DNA of 56,905 nt from positions 1-56,905 of the forward strand of contig PLMA01000020.1 in NCBI GenBank assembly GCA_003141455.1, given 5' to 3'. Source of the DNA: Chloroflexota bacterium. Lineage in GTDB: Bacteria > Chloroflexota > Limnocylindria > Limnocylindrales > CSP1-4. The position numbers and the translations under genes are program-made. A model generated the notes under the pieces. That model had not been told where the DNA came from and did no database searches. It saw only the letters and a program-made list of their open reading frames with translations. This document shows positions 23,510 through 30,731 of this stretch, piece by piece (the stretch's first letter is position 1; the number at the start of each line of letters is the position of its first letter).

Positions 23510-24790
23510 CTAGCCGAGATCGGCTTCGGGCCACGGTCCCAGGCCCGTCCGGAGCGGATGAAGCGGCTCGTCTGCGTCCTCTGCCACCGTTCCGGCAGCG
23601 ATCGCTGCCGGGCGCCGAAGCCCCGGCACAAACCACGACGCCGCGATCAGGCCGATAGCCCACCACCACTGCCGCCCGTCGGGCGCCGACGTGATGCCTA
23701 TGGCCAGCCACAACCAGAGTGCCCGCAGGTTGAGCATCGATGGCACCGCAATGAGCAGCCCGTGCCCAAAGAGCGAGGGAGAGGCGACGATCGTGGCCGT
23801 ACCGAGACGTGCCAGCCCCTCGCGGCCAGTGGCGCGCAGCGCGGCCAGGACAGCGGCCACAGCCAGCACCAGGAATGCCCAGACCGGCACGAAGCCCGGC
23901 AGCCCAAACCCATAGAGCACCGGCAGGTCCTGTTGCGAGGCCTGGTACAACCACAGGGCCTCGATCCAGGCCTGCCATGCGCTCACGCCGACGAGCGGCA
24001 GCGTCAGGAGCATCAGAACAGCGATCGCGGCCAGTCCGGAGGCCAGCTGCGACCAGCGCCGCTCGCGAACAAGCCACAGCGCGAGGATCCCGGTGTATGA
24101 CTTGAAGACCGCTCCGGCCACCAGCCCGGCCCCCAGCCACGGCGCCAGCGCGAAGAAGGCCAGCGCCGGGACGGCGACGTTGCCCACCCACAAACCCTGG
24201 AACAGCGGGGGCCACAGCGCTATGAGAACCAGCCACCGCGGCGGCAGCCCGATGAGGCGCAACCCCAGGAGCACCAGCCCGAGAGAGCAGCCCACCCAGA
24301 AAGCCTGGGCTACGATCACCGGCAGCGATGAGAGTACGGCGAAGACGGGGAGCGTCAGGGGCGGGTAGAGGAACGGGTAGTTCGAGAGGTCCGCCGGCCG
24401 CTCGGTGATCGCGGTCTGGAGGTAGACCGGAGTCCCCGCCAGGAAGTGCTGGCCCGCCTTCAGGTATATGCCCAGGTCGCGGAGTGGCTGATTGGCCATG
24501 GTCAGGTCCGTCAGGACCATGGCCGCCAGGGCGAAGATCGCGGCCGCCTCCACCGGCCGAAGCCTCGGCGCTGCCGGTCGGAGGCGTCTCGAGGTCAGGC
24601 TCGCCACAAGAACCGCCGCCGCGACCAGGACGATCCAGGTCGTCCAGTACGCCACGCCCGGGCCGATGGGCACGCTCCAGGTGCGCGTAACGAGGAGGAT
24701 GTAGGCGCCCAGGATGCCGACGATTGCCCACCCACCCGGATCCCCGGGCGAGAGGCGACGCAGGCGATCGGCTAGCGGCGAATGCCTCAT
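23510..24790 (-). CDS. GT87 (DUF2029) family GT-C mannosyltransferase-like protein
   Basis: DLGIYLKAG, YPFLYPP, LWVGNV and GAVFK motifs with many TMs. Confidence 0.82.
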   Translation of the reverse strand: MRHSPLADRLRRLSPGDPGGWAIVGILGAYILLVTRTWSVPIGPGVAYWTTWIVLVAAAVLVASLTSRRLRPAAPRLRPVEAAAIFALAAMVLTDLTMANQPLRDLGIYLKAGQHFLAGTPVYLQTAITERPADLSNYPFLYPPLTLPVFAVLSSLPVIVAQAFWVGCSLGLVLLGLRLIGLPPRWLVLIALWPPLFQGLWVGNVAVPALAFFALAPWLGAGLVAGAVFKSYTGILALWLVRERRWSQLASGLAAIAVLMLLTLPLVGVSAWQAWIEALWLYQASQQDLPVLYGFGLPGFVPVWAFLVLAVAAVLAALRATGREGLARLGTATIVASPSLFGHGLLIAVPSMLNLRALWLWLAIGITSAPDGRQWWWAIGLIAASWFVPGLRRPAAIAAGTVAEDADEPLHPLRTGLGPWPEADLG

Positions 24791-24854: not shown

Positions 24855-25517
24855 CTACTGTCCGGCGACGACTTCCAGTTCGATCAATTCGCCGCCCACG
24901 AGCTCGAAGACACGCTCGTCGATCGGGTCGTCGGCGCTCCTGGCCCGATCGGCCACGTAATCGGCGAACATGGCCGCGAATTCCTCGTCGCCGTCGACCA
25001 ACGCCGCGGCAATGAGGAGATCGCGTTCGGGCAGGCCCACGATGATCCGCGGGGCCGGCGCCAGCCCCGCAACCAGCTGGTCGCGGACTTCTGCAAGCAG
25101 GATCCGTGCGGCGTCCATTCCCGCACCCCAGTCGGACCAAACGATCCGCCGAGATCCGTCGACCTCGTCCAGCCAGGTCGCCTCGGTCGACCATTCGGAC
25201 AGGTTCGCCATGGCGGCCGCTTGAACCTCCTCGGGGCCGACTCCCCATGCCAGCAGGTGCTCTACGCTCACCAGCACGTCGAAGCCGTCGGCCGGAAGGA
25301 CGTACACGACCGGCAGGCCGGCCGGCCCGGCCGTGATGAGCGGCTCGCCGGGCGCGCGGTGGGATTTGGGCGCGATTCTCTCTCGACCGTCCACCCCGGT
25401 GGTGCCGGGGGGTCTCAAGGCAGGGCGGACAACGCGCGCGGCGGCCGCCCAATCGTGCTCTGGAGCGAGCGATGGCGGCAGATGGACCGCCGTATCGTGC
25501 TCCACCTGAACCTCCAA
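24855..25517 (-). CDS. DUF1444/YtpQ-like hypothetical protein (start uncertain)
   Basis: GLPVVYV, WGV..EEV..AA.ANL, DAARILL and GLPERDLL pattern. Confidence 0.65.
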   Translation of the reverse strand: MEVQVEHDTAVHLPPSLAPEHDWAAAARVVRPALRPPGTTGVDGRERIAPKSHRAPGEPLITAGPAGLPVVYVLPADGFDVLVSVEHLLAWGVGPEEVQAAAMANLSEWSTEATWLDEVDGSRRIVWSDWGAGMDAARILLAEVRDQLVAGLAPAPRIIVGLPERDLLIAAALVDGDEEFAAMFADYVADRARSADDPIDERVFELVGGELIELEVVAGQ

Positions 25518-25778: not shown

Positions 25779-26117
25779 TCAGCCCAGCAAGGTCTGGCGC
25801 TGTGCCTGAACGGCGACCATACCCAGAACGGCGAATGCGAGGCAGATCAGCAGCGCGAAGAGCGGCGTCGAGCCGTTGCTCGAAGAGTCGCGGCCGGTGC
25901 TGGTGGGCGGCCGAGTGACGGCTCGGCTAGGAACGGACGTCGCGGCGCCAACGGACTCGATCAGCACCTTCGGGATGGTCACGATCGAGGCAGTGGTGGC
26001 GAGCGGCGTCCGACCGGAAAAGCCGTGGCCGGTCGCCGTAATGACGACCTGACCGGCATCCATGTCTGCCAGAACGACCGCGTAGTTCCCCTTGCAGGGG
26101 TGACCTGTCGGAACCAC
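25779..26117 (-). pseudogene. N-terminally truncated surface-protein paralogue retaining the PPT-TM-basic C-terminus
   Basis: TRPPTSTG..STPLFALLICLAFAVLGMVAVQAQRQ matches its neighbours; no signal peptide or RBS; begins about 10 nt after the upstream terminator. Confidence 0.55.
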
Positions 26118-26127
26118 ACAGACAAGA

Positions 26128-26196
26128 ACCGACGGGCCATGACTGCGGCCCGTCGGTCTATCTCAGGTCTGGGTAGGTCGCTCGAGGCGACCGATG
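26128..26196 (-). repeat. 3'-UTR/terminator repeat, copy 1
   Basis: Near-identical to 27470-27536; contains GGTCGC..GCGACC and CCGACGGGCC..GGCCCGTCGG hairpins. Confidence 0.85.
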
Positions 26197-26205
26197 TCGG
26201 CTCCC

Positions 26206-27171
26206 CTAGCGGCTCAAGGTCCGGCGCTGCCTTTGAACTGCCAGCAACCCGAGCCCGCCGAAGGCAAAGCAGATCATGAGGGCGAAGAACGGGGTGGGGC
26301 TGTCGCCCGACGGTCCGCCGCCGACTGTGGTCGGAGGGGGCGTAATCGCGCGGACAGGCGTGGCCGTCTCACCCTGGAACGACTGGAAAGGCGTTGGCGT
26401 CGCCGAAGTGGAGGCGCTCGGCGTCGGGTCGACCACGAGGGTCTCTTCCGTGCAGGCGCTGGTAGCGGCGGCGTTGCTGGCATCACCGCTGTAGACGGCC
26501 TGCCAGTACCAGGTCCCGACGCTGTTGAAGACGATCCCGTCGGAGTTGGGCACCGAGCCGTTGGTCACGGTCTTGGTGCCGGCGTCGATAGCCCCGGAGG
26601 TGCACGCGGTGTTGGTGTAGATGGTGTAGGTCACCTTCCCGCCCGCAGTCGCCGTGGTACCGGTGAGGGTCGCGGTGTCATGGATCGTGTCGCCGACTGT
26701 TCCCTTCGACTTCGAGAGTACCGTAGCGATCGTCGGGCCAGCCGGGCTGACAGTGACAGGCTCCTCGTTCGCGTCGGAGGCGACCGTGTAGTTGTTGGCG
26801 TCGCCGCCGTATCTCGCGACCCAGTGCCAGGTGCCGACCATGTCGGGCACGAAGCCGCCACTAAGCGGGGTCGAGTAGTAGCCGTTGCCGGAGACCGCCA
26901 CGGTCTCGGTGTCCCGGACCACGCTGTTCGGATCTTTCAGGGTGAAGGTGATCGTGCCGGTCGGGCTGTAGCCGCCGGTCAGGTGGGCGGTATCGGTGAG
27001 CTTGTGACCGCTGCCGATGACGACCGGGTCGCCGGTGGTGGTGGTGATCGTCGGGCTGTAGCAGGCGGAAGCAACCCCCGCCAGCGCCGGAATGAACATC
27101 GCGACCATCGCGAACACCACGGCAAGACGGAAACTGCGGGCTCGCCCCGGGCGCCAAATGTTGGTGTCCAT
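26206..27171 (-). CDS. secreted surface protein with two Ig-like (Big_3-like) repeats and PPT-TM-basic C-terminus
   Basis: Signal peptide ending ASA; repeats DTAHLTG..GTWHWVARYGGDANN and DTATLTG..GTWYWQAVYSGDASN; AGGAGA RBS. Confidence 0.85.
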   Translation of the reverse strand: MDTNIWRPGRARSFRLAVVFAMVAMFIPALAGVASACYSPTITTTTGDPVVIGSGHKLTDTAHLTGGYSPTGTITFTLKDPNSVVRDTETVAVSGNGYYSTPLSGGFVPDMVGTWHWVARYGGDANNYTVASDANEEPVTVSPAGPTIATVLSKSKGTVGDTIHDTATLTGTTATAGGKVTYTIYTNTACTSGAIDAGTKTVTNGSVPNSDGIVFNSVGTWYWQAVYSGDASNAAATSACTEETLVVDPTPSASTSATPTPFQSFQGETATPVRAITPPPTTVGGGPSGDSPTPFFALMICFAFGGLGLLAVQRQRRTLSR

Positions 27172-27469
27172 CGGTCTCCTATCCCTCGGCCGGGTGCAGA
27201 GGGCCGACGACGTCATAGGTCAGCTGCCGTAGTACCCGAGTCGCACGCGTACACTACCCAAAAGGACTGCGGGCGTCTAGTACCATATAGTGCTCCCGGG
27301 CACCGCTGATGAGCCGTAGATGTCGACAGGACGACAGCTAGCAGGCTCTCCTGGGATCCGCCGGTTCTGCTCTGGACCTACGGACCGCCGCGTGTTCTGC
27401 CTGGGCGCTGGCGGTTCGCGTCGATCGAGCCTGAACTGTGGCTCACGCCACCGCTCGTCATGCACTGGT

Positions 27470-27536
27470 ACCGACGGGCCATGACTGGCCCGTCGGTCTA
27501 TCTCAGGTCTCTGGAGGTCGCTGGAGGCGACCGATG
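27470..27536 (-). repeat. 3'-UTR/terminator repeat, copy 2
   Basis: ACCGACGGGCCATGACT(GC)GGCCCGTCGGTCTATCTCAGGTCT....AGGTCGCT.GAGGCGACCGATG shared with copy 1. Confidence 0.85.
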
Positions 27537-27545
27537 GTGTGTCCC

Positions 27546-28235
27546 CTAGCGGCGGATGCTCCGGCGCTGAGCCTCCACGGCAGCCAATCCAAGCCCGCCC
27601 AGGGCGAAGGAGATCACCAACGCTAGAAGCGGCGTCGAGCTGCCGCCCGAAGAACCGCCGGTGCTGCTGGTTGGCGGAGGCGTAAGAACCCGGACGGGTG
27701 TGGCCGTCTCACCCTGGAGCGACTGAAATGGGGTCCGCGACGGATCCACCCTCGGTGTGGCCGTCTCACCCTGAAGCGACTCGAACGGGGTCGGGGTCGG
27801 CTTGGGGGTCGCTGTTGGCGTAGGTGTTGGGGTAGGTTTCGGGGTCGGCGTTGGCGTCGGCCTGGGTGTTGGCGTGGCGCAGCCCACGGCCGGCGCGATG
27901 CTCGCGCTCGTCGTGAACTCGACAATCGAACCCGTGTAGATCTTCAGTGTGAACGTGCCGGCTGCGGGCGCGGGGCCGCTTGCGGACCAGATCTGGCCGA
28001 AGGTCGTGTTGTAGTGGTTTCCGGCGATTCCGACGGTGCCGGGGATGGTAGTGACTACAACGACCGTCCGATCGGAGGTCACGTTGTGGTTCAACGAGAC
28101 GGACACGCTCCACGTGGCGCATGTCTCCGATGCGGCGACGTTGCCGGTATTGGCAGCCGTGACACCGGCCAGGGCAAACAGAAGCGTGGCCGACGTCAGG
28201 GCAGCGAGTGTCACCTTGCGATAAGTCGTGATCAT
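27546..28235 (-). CDS. secreted surface protein with small beta domain, PT linker and PPT-TM-basic C-terminus
   Basis: Signal peptide, two Cys, (PT)n linker, two copies of PF(E/Q)SLQGETATP, TPPPTSST, TM helix, QRRSIRR; GGAG RBS. Confidence 0.85.
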   Translation of the reverse strand: MITTYRKVTLAALTSATLLFALAGVTAANTGNVAASETCATWSVSVSLNHNVTSDRTVVVVTTIPGTVGIAGNHYNTTFGQIWSASGPAPAAGTFTLKIYTGSIVEFTTSASIAPAVGCATPTPRPTPTPTPKPTPTPTPTATPKPTPTPFESLQGETATPRVDPSRTPFQSLQGETATPVRVLTPPPTSSTGGSSGGSSTPLLALVISFALGGLGLAAVEAQRRSIRR

Positions 28236-28713: not shown

Positions 28714-30363
28714 CTAGCCGCCGGTGCCGGCTGGACCCGTCGGAGGCTCGTGCCCCTCGGGCAGCTTCGGAGTGAAGCGGAAGCCGCCGGCCACTCCCGG
28801 CTCCGTAAGCTCGCGGGGGGCGAGTAGCTCGTCCAGTTCCGCGGCTGTGAAGATACCCCGCTCGATGACGATCTCACGGATCGAGCGCCGCTCACGCACC
28901 GCCTGCTTGGAGATCTCCGCGGCAAGGGCGTAGCCCAGGTACGGCGCCAGCGGTGTGGAGAGCGCCGAGGAATGCTCCATCAAGTCACGGGCGCGCTCTC
29001 GGTTGGCCTCGATGCCGGTTACGCAGAACTCCGCGAAGGCGCGACTCATGTTAGTAAGGATCGTGAGGGACTCGAGTGCCGTGTGGGCTATCACCGGCAT
29101 CATCACGTTCAGTTCGAGCTGGCCGGCGGAGGCGGCCCAGGCGATGGTGGTGTCGTTGCCGATGACCCGGAAGCAGACCATGGACAGGCACTCCGCCATG
29201 ACCGGGTTTACCTTGCCCGGCATGATCGAGCTGCCCGGCTGGACGGCCGGAAGAGTGATCTCGGCGAAGCCCGTCATCGGACCCGAGGACATGAGCCGCA
29301 GGTCTTCGCTGATCTTGATCAGGTCGACGGCGATGCCGCGCAACGCGGCCGAAACTTCGAGCATCGGACGCATGGAGTGCGTGGCCTGGACCAGGTGCTC
29401 GGCGCCGCGAAGTGGATGACCCGTTTGCTCGGCGAGATAGCGGACGACGAGTTCGATGTACTCGATCTCTGCGTTGAGGCCCGTGCCCACCGCGGTCGCT
29501 CCGATGTTCTGCTCGGCGATCGAACCGGCGGCGGTCTGGAGCCGATCGAGCCCACGGCGGAGCGTAAGCGCGTAGGCGGCGAACTCCTGGCCAAGGCGTA
29601 TCGGGACCGCGTCCTGCATGTGCGTTCGGCCCGACTTGATGACGTCGTCGAACTCGCGCGCCTTCTGCTCGAAGGCACCGATGAGCTCCTCGGCGGCGCA
29701 CGTGTAGTCGTGGATCCCATCGAGGGTGGCGATCCGCATCGAGGTGGGGAAGACGTCGTTCGTGGACTGGGCCATGTTGACGTGGTCGTTCGGGCTGATG
29801 ACTGAGTAGTCGCCGCGCTTGCCCGAGCCGACGCCGCTCGCGTGGAGCAGCTCGATGGCCCTGTTGGCCAGCACCTCGTTGGCGTTCATGTTGTGGCTCG
29901 TGCCGGCGCCGGCCTGGAACGGGTCGATGCGGAAGTTGTCGATCAGCTCGCGCTGCTTGGCGGCCCGGGCGGCCTCGAAGGCGGCGTGCATCGGATCGGA
30001 GGGCCGGCCGGGCTCCATGTCGTCAGCGTCTTCGGCGCATGGTTCGGTCGGGCAGAGGATCTCGTCCGCGGCCTCGACGATGGCGTTGCCGAGCGGCCTC
30101 GGCAGCCGGCCGGTGGCAAGGTTGGCTCGAGCTGCCGCCTTCTTTACCTGGACGATCGCACGCACGAGCGCCGGATGGGGGCGCGCGCCCGAGATCGGGA
30201 AGTTGTGGATGCCGCGGGCGGTCTGGACGCCGTAGTAGGCGGAGTCCGAAACTTCAAGATAGCCCAGGGGATCTTTCTCGATCCGAAAGCCGGCCCGGGG
30301 CGTTGGAGGAGTGGCGGGGCTCGTGGTGGCCGGTTTTGGCTGGCCTGCGGCATCGGGGGTCAT
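28714..30363 (-). CDS. aspA: aspartate ammonia-lyase (fumarase/aspartase superfamily)
   Basis: YYGVQTAR, NMAQSTNDVFP, GRTHMQDAVP and GSSIMPGKVNP motifs. Confidence 0.85.
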   Translation of the reverse strand: MTPDAAGQPKPATTSPATPPTPRAGFRIEKDPLGYLEVSDSAYYGVQTARGIHNFPISGARPHPALVRAIVQVKKAAARANLATGRLPRPLGNAIVEAADEILCPTEPCAEDADDMEPGRPSDPMHAAFEAARAAKQRELIDNFRIDPFQAGAGTSHNMNANEVLANRAIELLHASGVGSGKRGDYSVISPNDHVNMAQSTNDVFPTSMRIATLDGIHDYTCAAEELIGAFEQKAREFDDVIKSGRTHMQDAVPIRLGQEFAAYALTLRRGLDRLQTAAGSIAEQNIGATAVGTGLNAEIEYIELVVRYLAEQTGHPLRGAEHLVQATHSMRPMLEVSAALRGIAVDLIKISEDLRLMSSGPMTGFAEITLPAVQPGSSIMPGKVNPVMAECLSMVCFRVIGNDTTIAWAASAGQLELNVMMPVIAHTALESLTILTNMSRAFAEFCVTGIEANRERARDLMEHSSALSTPLAPYLGYALAAEISKQAVRERRSIREIVIERGIFTAAELDELLAPRELTEPGVAGGFRFTPKLPEGHEPPTGPAGTGG

Positions 30364-30731
30364 GGCGGTTTGCTCCTGGCTCGAAGCGGATGCCGGCCGT
30401 TGGCGACGCGGGACGCCGGCGTCATTCGATTCTATAGCCGCCGGATCGCGACTCGGCGGCCGCGCGGTCGCGCAGGGTGGATCGCCGGTGCGTCCCGCGC
30501 GACGAACTTTCGGGAATCGCACACGGTCCGGAGGTCTGCCCTCGCCACTCCAACGGCCCTCGAATCCAGGCTCGCCCGGAGAGACCGGTACATTTCCGGC
30601 TTCCCGAACCGGTATATTGCCGGGACCGGCCGCTGGCGCAGGCAGTGGTCTGGACATTCCGTAACCAGGCAACCGGGCGCCGCGTGCCCCGGTCAGCCCG
30701 GTCTGGCGCCCCAGGACGGAGGAGGTCCGGC

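Follow-up and report, generated by a model that had tools for sequence, protein, structure and literature searches.

Three neighbouring genes on the minus strand of contig PLMA01000020.1 (assembly GCA_003141455.1), from an uncultured soil bacterium of the Candidatus Limnocylindrales (Chloroflexota), encode unrelated passenger proteins that end in the same C-terminal tail of about 60 residues. The whole stretch of DNA analysed, 56,905 nucleotides in length, is referred to here as the window. The question raised by this locus is whether the tail is a protein-sorting signal and, if so, which enzyme processes it. The tail is widespread in one bacterial family, is carried there by unrelated passengers and is under purifying selection, and in the same family an enzyme of the sortase fold with serine at the position of the catalytic cysteine is nearly universal. 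The preferred reading, whose chances are judged to be about even, is that the tail is a genuine lineage-specific signal of the LPXTG type, and that the single serine-variant sortase homologue of the genome cleaves and transfers the proteins that carry it.

The shared tail of the three window genes

As the initial annotation had it, the window holds three co-oriented open reading frames (ORFs) with a closely aligned tail of about 60 residues. The coordinates agree with the ORF list (25779-26117, 112 residues; 26206-27216, 336 residues; 27546-28235, 229 residues; here genes 1 to 3, all on the minus strand), and over the last 60-69 residues the three proteins align with 21 invariant columns and a mean column identity of 70%. 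The parts of each tail follow one order, comprising an F-Q-S-x-Q-G-E-T-A-T-P element, the motif T-P-P-P-T, a Ser/Gly spacer, a hydrophobic transmembrane (TM) helix and a basic end. The upstream element is degraded in gene 1 and duplicated in gene 3, and the motif with its following residue reads TPPPT+S, TPPPT+T and TRPPT+S among the three genes.

Gene 3 (27546-28235, minus strand) encodes a 229-residue secreted protein with a signal peptide, a small beta-rich passenger, a Pro/Thr linker and the tail. Its passenger matches nothing in Pfam or NCBIfam beyond the poly-Pro/Thr linker, while an identical database protein (P0004) and close homologues exist. The 60-residue tail (27549-27728, minus strand) was delimited from alignments and checked translations. 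Its upstream element (27684-27728) precedes TPPPT (27669-27683), followed by the Ser/Gly spacer (27636-27668), the TM helix (27573-27635) and the basic end AQRRSIRR (27549-27572), with the last four placed by verified translation. Two copies of a longer form of the element, T-P-F-x-S-x-Q-G-E-T-A-T-P, stand upstream of TPPPT in gene 3 (27684-27770, minus strand), where it reads TPF-x-S-L-Q-G-E-T-A-T-P, and two are present in the tail gene of contig C27 (L004:5004-5183, minus strand); a looser [V/L]-x-G-x-T-[A/S]-x-P occurs ahead of the motif in several other genera.

Gene 2 (26206-27216, minus strand) encodes a 336-residue secreted protein with a signal peptide, two Ig-like stretches and the tail. 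The Ig-like stretches match Big_3_5 of Pfam with an expectation value (E) of 1e-7 and 32.9 bits over two stretches, below the gathering score of 35.5. The tail (26209-26388), placed by alignment and verified translation, contains TPPPT (26329-26343), the TM helix (26233-26295) and the basic end RQRRTLSR (26209-26232), all three confirmed by translation, and it is the best match to the tail profile in the genome (E 2.3e-27).

Gene 1 (25779-26117, minus strand) has no signal peptide. Its motif is degraded to TRPPT (25902-25916), its TM helix lies at 25806-25868, both confirmed by translation, and its end AQRQTLLG (25782-25805) keeps a single Arg, which weakens the basic character. The gene resembles the C-terminal 106 residues of a 522-residue DUF7507 protein that is syntenic in a genus-mate, G016 (BLASTP, 56% identity, E 1e-31), and its frame from stop to stop spans 127 codons only, into which a signal peptide would not fit. 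Gene 1 is therefore the 5'-truncated remnant of a DUF7507 surface protein with a decaying signal, and no small protein of its own.

Copies of the tail across the source genome

The source genome (3.07 Mb, 68 contigs, 92% complete) was scanned as 40,787 six-frame ORFs. A profile built from just the three window tails retrieved two more ORFs, one of them on another contig at E 7.1e-21 and the other at E 1.6e-5, a match that goes far beyond chance. Pattern search and genome profile search together yielded 11 tail-bearing ORFs on 6 contigs, with the tail at the extreme C-terminus in every case; two more pattern matches were dropped as low-complexity ORFs of 40-42 residues. The eight passengers outside the window comprise two ice-binding-like proteins (DUF3494), one DUF7933/DUF4082 protein, three DUF4082-like proteins and two without a Pfam match. 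An in-frame signal peptide, judged by eye, is present in 9 of the 11 copies, the exceptions being gene 1 and the copy on contig C9. In the latter (28995-30125, plus strand; equivalent to L006:4996-6126) the signal peptide lies in another frame than the rest, and an intact homologue, P0092, has one; the copy appears to carry either a frameshift or an assembly error.

An alignment of 11 diverse tails from three genomes leaves only T, P, P and T invariant, with no invariant column in the TM helix. The conserved helix is common to 4 of the 11 copies in the source genome, namely the three window genes and one on contig C1, and the remaining copies have quite different helices. The earlier suggestion that the helix itself is recognised was not borne out, since no TM column is invariant across the tail types of one genome and the helix is conserved in one subtype only. 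Any pair of tails within that subtype has 26-40 conserved residues, of which 9-17 are encoded by differing codons. Because synonymous codons have diverged alongside conserved residues, the amino-acid sequence of the tail is, on this codon evidence, held by purifying selection and not by recent gene conversion. A genome-wide hydropathy screen for C-terminal TM helices with basic ends was discarded as a control, as most of what it recovered were polytopic membrane proteins and it missed all but 2 of the 11 tail proteins.

Taxonomic range of the tail

Searching the genome and its relatives with profiles of the tail, as had been proposed at the outset, returned further copies with diverse passengers. 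A 60-column profile had 1-11 matches in every genome of the genus (18 of 18) and none in the 12 genomes of a sister family (1.1-Mb genomes). In a draw of 300 genomes from the phylum it matched eight besides the source genome, seven of them in the same family; the eighth (G072), the only one outside it, was rejected on inspection as lacking the motif. A 48-column profile starting at the motif matched in 52 of 120 family genomes, representing 28 of 49 genera; this family sample includes one unpublished genome (G395). Twenty of the weaker family matches from other genera were fetched, of which 17 read [T/L/A/Q]-P-P-T or T-P-P-P-T with D, N, S, T or E as the next residue and continue through a Gly/Ser spacer and a helix to an Arg-rich end, and three (L043, L050 and L054) gave no convincing frame. 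One genus, g6, has the motif S-L-P-P-T-D or S-L-P-P-T-T.

Among 5.8 billion database proteins, from which 8000 candidates were scored, at least 169 match the tail at E up to 1e-3. Among the matches listed, the tail forms the very C-terminal end in 120 of 120, T-P-P-P-T is present in 105 and PPT in 114, where the next residue is S in 71, G in 16, T in 11, N in 10, A in 4 and I in 2; in other genera it is also D, N or E. The PPT core of the motif originally described as PPT-[ST] was therefore retained, but its restriction to Ser or Thr at the next position was not. The spacer from the motif Thr to the helix measures 11-13 residues (S 36%, G 28%, T 15%), and two or more basic residues (median 4) come after the best 19-residue hydrophobic window in all 114 PPT tails, TM segments being called here from the hydropathy window and not by a TM predictor. 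What the tails have in common is T-P-P-P-T-[S/G/N/T/D], then a Ser/Gly spacer of 11-13 residues, a TM helix and an Arg-rich end. A signal peptide was found in 89 of the 120 listed database proteins by a crude regular expression, many of the others being fragments on short contigs. The database passengers include Big_3_5, VWA, DUF7507, DUF11, MBG_2, CARDB, DUF3494 and DUF7933.

Among the matches listed, all 17 related loci belong to Chloroflexi or Candidatus Limnocylindrales metagenome-assembled genomes. For the class Candidatus Limnocylindria (formerly Ellin6529), a mean guanine-cytosine content of 68.9% is given in a passage of PMC10608941, with which the window agrees. The tail is lineage-specific, occurring in one family of Candidatus Limnocylindrales within the Chloroflexota.

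The tail as a probable sorting signal of the LPXTG type

Section 5 of 10.1101/2023.06.07.544157 sets out eight attributes of tripartite C-terminal sorting signals, and the tail has all eight as given in that section. It stands at the very C-terminus and recurs many times in one genome; its invariant motif is followed by a TM segment and then a basic cluster; most proteins that carry it begin with a signal peptide; and their passengers are unrelated to one another, with homologues elsewhere that lack the tail or have another signal. Pairs of tail proteins share only the tail, their passengers being assigned by Pfam to Big_3_5, Ice_binding, DUF7933/DUF4082, DUF7507, VWA, MBG_2 and DUF11, or to no family. 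The PPT tail is present on 30 of 112 close homologues of the ice-binding passenger; of the others, 58 end without a TM segment, 16 have another TM end and 8 are LPXTG-like by regular expression. Inspection by eye showed that four of these eight (P0351, P0362, P0369 and P0379) have a canonical LP[S/N/V]TG with a TM helix and basic end at the same place, in other lineages, two of them titled Actinomycetota and Candidatus Paceibacterota; one of the eight reads L-A-P-T-S on a TM helix of the local subtype, and two are false positives. Because homologous passengers elsewhere carry LPxTG at the same place, the PPT tail appears equivalent to the LPXTG signal. These comparisons support the view that the tail behaves as a protein-sorting or anchoring signal, and we regard it as a variant of the LPXTG-type signal that is peculiar to this lineage. 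The proposal of a lineage-specific signal was in this way upheld, as signal-like behaviour within one family.

The three window proteins match no curated sorting model in Pfam or NCBIfam, including existing LPXTG-like models, with no match to TIGR01167 or PF00746 at E up to 1. Their nearest NCBIfam model is JDVT-CTERM (E 0.051, 13.5 bits against a cut-off of 27), which covers the helix only. In the six-frame scan of the genome, a tail protein on contig C23 scored 16.8 bits against a cut-off of 15.9 for TIGR01167 and 19.6 against 20 for PF00746, in its TM and basic part only, and the scan was also positive in 14 of 14 control genomes for TIGR01167 and in 13 for PF00746. No canonical LPXTG signal was found in the genome; the best TIGR01167 and PF00746 matches fall on two tail proteins, in their TM and basic parts, with the LPXTG positions uncovered. 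The motif departs from the L-P-x-T-G pentapeptide while retaining P-x-T. The initial claim that it matches none of the known signals holds with respect to curated models but not with respect to LPXTG, since P-x-T is kept, the motif stands 11-13 residues outside the TM helix, and homologous passengers carry LPxTG.

A serine-variant sortase homologue as candidate enzyme

A processing enzyme had been expected elsewhere in the genome, as the window holds no sortase. None was indeed found in the window, nor beside the tail genes at seven related loci of 17-20 kb, but a divergent protein of predicted sortase fold is encoded on another contig. This sortase homologue (contig C5, 58614-59501; equivalent to L001:1342-2232, minus strand) is the only PF04203 match in the genome. 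It measures 296 residues from the first start codon and 269 as called in databases, and consists of an N-terminal TM helix, a Pro-rich linker and a C-terminal domain. It scored 26.1 and 24.1 bits for PF04203 in two scans, against a cut-off of 26.6, whereas paralogues of the same clade from other genomes reach 29.1-68.8 bits. The homologue fits none of the sortase class models of NCBIfam, and a phmmer search with it against the PDB returned no match.

Structural comparison places the C-terminal domain among the sortases. An AlphaFold2 model of the domain has, over residues 121-280, block-mean predicted local distance difference test (pLDDT) values mostly of 80-94, with three blocks at 64-72. 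Compared by VIA-align with Listeria monocytogenes SrtA (5hu4), it gave Z 15.3 and a root-mean-square deviation of 2.8 A over 137 residues, and among the matches listed 50 of 50 are sortases, of classes A, C and E together with SrtF of Corynebacterium diphtheriae. Foldseek of the domain model gave E 2.5e-9 with probability 1.0, and 27 of 30 Atlas feature matches are sortase clusters. According to the model, the domain has the sortase fold.

Profile alignment sets L-Q-T-S-E of the candidate on L-V-T-C-E(-D) of the SrtA chains 5dv0 and 4o8l, a weak alignment (E about 0.8) that pairs Ser243 with the nucleophilic Cys of SrtA. Residue counts were taken over the best 150 of 682 representative clusters. 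At the nucleophile position, 130 are aligned, with Ser in 122, Cys in 3, Gly in 4 and Pro in 1, and 20 are unaligned. His173 is kept in 144 of 147 representatives and without exception in a set of 10 sequences, and it is assigned to the sortase His by motif order only. Lys252 stands at the expected Arg position in 111 of 127, with Arg in 3. As aligned, the clade has Ser in place of the catalytic Cys and Lys where the Arg is expected. Two other positions in the clade are near-invariant Cys, C147 in P-L-C-D (138 of 143) and C279 (116 of 117), which could be a disulfide or a relocated nucleophile.

In the source genome the sortase homologue lies between an acetyltransferase-like ORF and a NuoN-like ORF. 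In another genome, G360, a paralogue lies on either side of a protein whose C-terminus consists of M-P-D-T-A, a TM helix and RRR. Paralogues also adjoin DUF4331 proteins at four loci, L069 (G360:C94), L070 (G417:C1), L071 (G224:C8) and L073 (G414:C286), some having two tandem domains per ORF; in two of the four DUF4331 proteins M-P-D-[S/T]-S lies close to the C-terminus. Two of the four loci (L069 and L073) also have a NicO-like membrane protein next to these genes, and L069 a TPR protein too. A paralogue and its DUF4331 neighbour are possibly a dedicated enzyme-substrate pair. Because M-P-D-T-A and M-P-D-[S/T]-S ends stand beside paralogues, the arrangement suggests that the serine-variant clade acts on P-x-T-type C-terminal motifs more generally.

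Distribution of the candidate enzyme and other possible processing machinery

The sortase homologue is present in 114 of 120 family genomes (68 of 70 high-quality ones) and in 58 of 58 genomes of a second draw. Outside the family only distant homologues were found, in 8 of 42 genomes of the sister family (E 1e-14 to 1e-20) and in 5 of 15, 3 of 4 and 1 of 3 genomes of three further families. A tail match was obtained in none of the six family genomes without the sortase homologue and in 52 of the 114 with it, a comparison in which three of the six are 54-66% complete and the genomes are not independent.

Regarding other enzymes, the exosortase family PF09721 has no match in the 92% complete genome. 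The single rhomboid scores 44.6 bits against the TIGR03902 cut-off of 84 and is not a rhombosortase. Four PF02517 matches represent intramembrane proteases of the CPBP/Rce1 type. Penicillin-binding proteins were found in the genome, and a peptidoglycan wall acceptor is plausible because they are present.

Relation to known sorting systems

The closest known system is that of LPXTG signals and sortases (TIGR01167/PF00746; sortase classes A-F, PF04203), with which the tail proteins share the signal peptide, passenger, P-x-T motif, spacer, TM helix and Arg-rich end. Both place the motif outside the membrane, and both would have one N-terminally TM-anchored enzyme of sortase fold serving many substrates, a pairing that is inferred for the present case. 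The tail differs in reading T-P-P-P-T-[S/G/N/T/D], without Leu and rarely with Gly, in its spacer length and in matching no model; in one subtype both the upstream element and the TM helix are conserved, and the enzyme carries Ser for Cys and Lys for Arg and scores at or under the Pfam cut-off.

The motif of Clostridioides difficile SrtB is reportedly (S/P)PxTG. It resembles the tail in having Pro at the first motif position and in keeping P-x-T; SrtB is, however, a canonical Cys sortase of the Firmicutes with a motif-final Gly, whereas the fifth residue here is mostly Ser and the candidate enzyme is a Ser variant from the Chloroflexota. PMC4155245 speaks of an 'LPXTG-like' motif.

PEP-CTERM with exosortase, PGF-CTERM with archaeosortase, GlyGly-CTERM with rhombosortase, and MYXO-CTERM and JDVT-CTERM with the CPBP myxosortases have the same C-terminal motif, TM helix and Arg cluster, many copies per genome and unrelated passengers. 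Their motifs lie directly against the TM helix and their enzymes are polytopic intramembrane proteins, whereas the TPPPT motif stands 11-13 residues away. MYXO-CTERM-like signals have an invariant signature Cys, unlike the tail, which has none in or beside TPPPT; a Cys inside the TM helix occurs in one tail subtype only and is replaced by Ser in gene 3.

A literature search that excluded supplements (the tables of 10.1101/2023.06.07.544157 and PMC10608941 could list further signal models or envelope genes) returned no description of the tail, of DUF4331 or of natural Ser sortases. Most named records of the tail proteins and the enzyme are titled 'hypothetical protein', and one Joint Genome Institute record of an enzyme-cluster member reads 'Sortase family.' The system appears to be of the LPXTG type, with a new motif, a new family of signals that no curated model covers, and a clade of enzymes in which the nucleophile is swapped.

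Genome neighbourhood of the tail genes

Downstream of the tail genes, a 220-residue protein without a Pfam match (24855-25517, minus strand) separates them from a glycosyltransferase of the GT87 family (23510-24790, minus strand; E 1.4e-11), two genes away. The 220-residue neighbour was considered as a processing enzyme and dropped, since it lacks a TM segment and matches NCBIfam only weakly (PRK13668, 'hypothetical protein', E 0.0058). On the other side lies a lyase of the aspartase/fumarase class (28714-30672, minus strand) with an N-terminal extension of about 225 residues, Lyase_1 starting at residue 228 of 652 with the start codon as called; syntenic homologues measure 613-754 residues and have the Lyase_1 domain from residues 190-330. 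The order of lyase, tail genes, small protein and GT87 is repeated in the genus-mates G016 and G008 (two of seven related loci), and the passengers between lyase and GT87 vary across these loci, including DUF7507, MBG_2 and Big_3_5. The impression is of a surface-protein island whose content varies while its place on the chromosome stays the same.

Proposed mechanism and alternative explanations

Under the preferred reading, the proteins would be exported by the Sec pathway, and the TM helix and Arg-rich end would keep them in the membrane, with T-P-P-P-T-[S/G/N/D] exposed some 12 residues beyond the bilayer. The serine-variant sortase, anchored in the membrane with its domain outside the cytoplasm, would then cut after the Thr, and the passenger would be passed to an acceptor in the wall or envelope. 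The 11-13 residue spacer would set the motif clear of the bilayer edge, on the outer side, where sortases work. Cleavage, its site, the acceptor and the action of this particular enzyme on the tail are all inferred. More doubtful, and proposed only tentatively, is the fuller chemical form of this mechanism, in which a natural sortase with a Ser nucleophile (Ser-His plus Lys in place of Cys-His-Arg) recognises T-P-P-P-T-[S/G/N/D], forms an ester instead of a thioester acyl-enzyme, and anchors the surface proteins of the whole family of uncultured Chloroflexota from soil and freshwater. If true, such an enzyme would be a new catalytic type in the sortase fold with its own undescribed signal.

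Several observations weigh against the proposed pairing of tail and enzyme. The candidate may be inactive or have another role, as the defining Cys and Arg are replaced, and it adjoins no tail gene at the seven loci examined. Its presence throughout the family discriminates poorly, since any family-specific gene would share that profile; the absence of tail matches from all six genomes without it concerns few genomes, partly incomplete and related to one another, and the enzyme is found in 114 of 120 family genomes against 52 for the tail profile. In the sister lineages f2 and f3 there are only weak tail matches, no clearer with a distant enzyme homologue than without one. Regarding the signal itself, the first motif position is T and not L, the fifth is rarely G, the G-E-T-A-T-P element upstream has no counterpart in sortase signals, and the classical LPXTG spacer is shorter than about 12 residues.

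Two other explanations are each considered unlikely, and to a similar degree. According to one of them, the tail is a permanent, uncleaved membrane anchor in which TPPPT and the Ser/Gly spacer form a rigid stalk, possibly O-glycosylated, the motif being kept for glycosylation or spacing. Pro/Thr linkers ahead of the tail in most members would suit such a stalk, as would the GT87 gene near the window genes and at the loci of G016 and G008, although this neighbour is confined to one genus and one syntenic locus and so counts as a single observation. The sole sortase homologue also lacks the canonical Cys and Arg. A permanent anchor would nevertheless not require a five-residue motif that stays invariant, always 11-13 residues from the helix, on unrelated passengers in many genera, and homologous passengers elsewhere carry a cleavable LPxTG at this very position.

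The second, equally improbable explanation has the tail cleaved by another enzyme, whether one of the four CPBP/Rce1-like proteases (as for MYXO-CTERM), a general rhomboid or a member of an unrecognised family. The genome does encode these four proteases and one rhomboid, the latter under the rhombosortase cut-off, and the strongly conserved TM helix of one subtype would suit an intramembrane partner; TM sequences, however, vary by tail subtype within one genome, and the invariant motif lies about 12 residues out from the helix and not at its edge. Housekeeping sorting enzymes are typically encoded apart from their substrates, as described in part of 10.1101/2023.06.07.544157, and the motif has no invariant Cys, unlike the CPBP-processed signals covered there.

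A recent duplication of three paralogues or a low-complexity coincidence without signal function, for which the tandem arrangement and the decayed state of gene 1 could speak, is scarcely credible given 11 copies with unrelated passengers on 6 contigs, tails in many genera and all 18 genomes of the genus, at least 169 database proteins, synonymous divergence with amino-acid conservation, and profile E-values as low as 1e-27.

Significance

C-terminal sorting signals are the chief computational handle on bacterial surface display, and earlier pairs of signal and enzyme, those of sortase, exosortase, rhombosortase and myxosortase, each opened a field. If the serine-variant sortase is active, it would represent a natural nucleophile swap in a transpeptidase that is used widely for protein ligation, one that recognises a new motif and whose chemistry thiol oxidation would not disturb. 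An inactive homologue would leave the tail as an orphan signal with its enzyme still to find. For Candidatus Limnocylindrales, which are abundant and uncultured, the tail would allow the surface proteome to be predicted.

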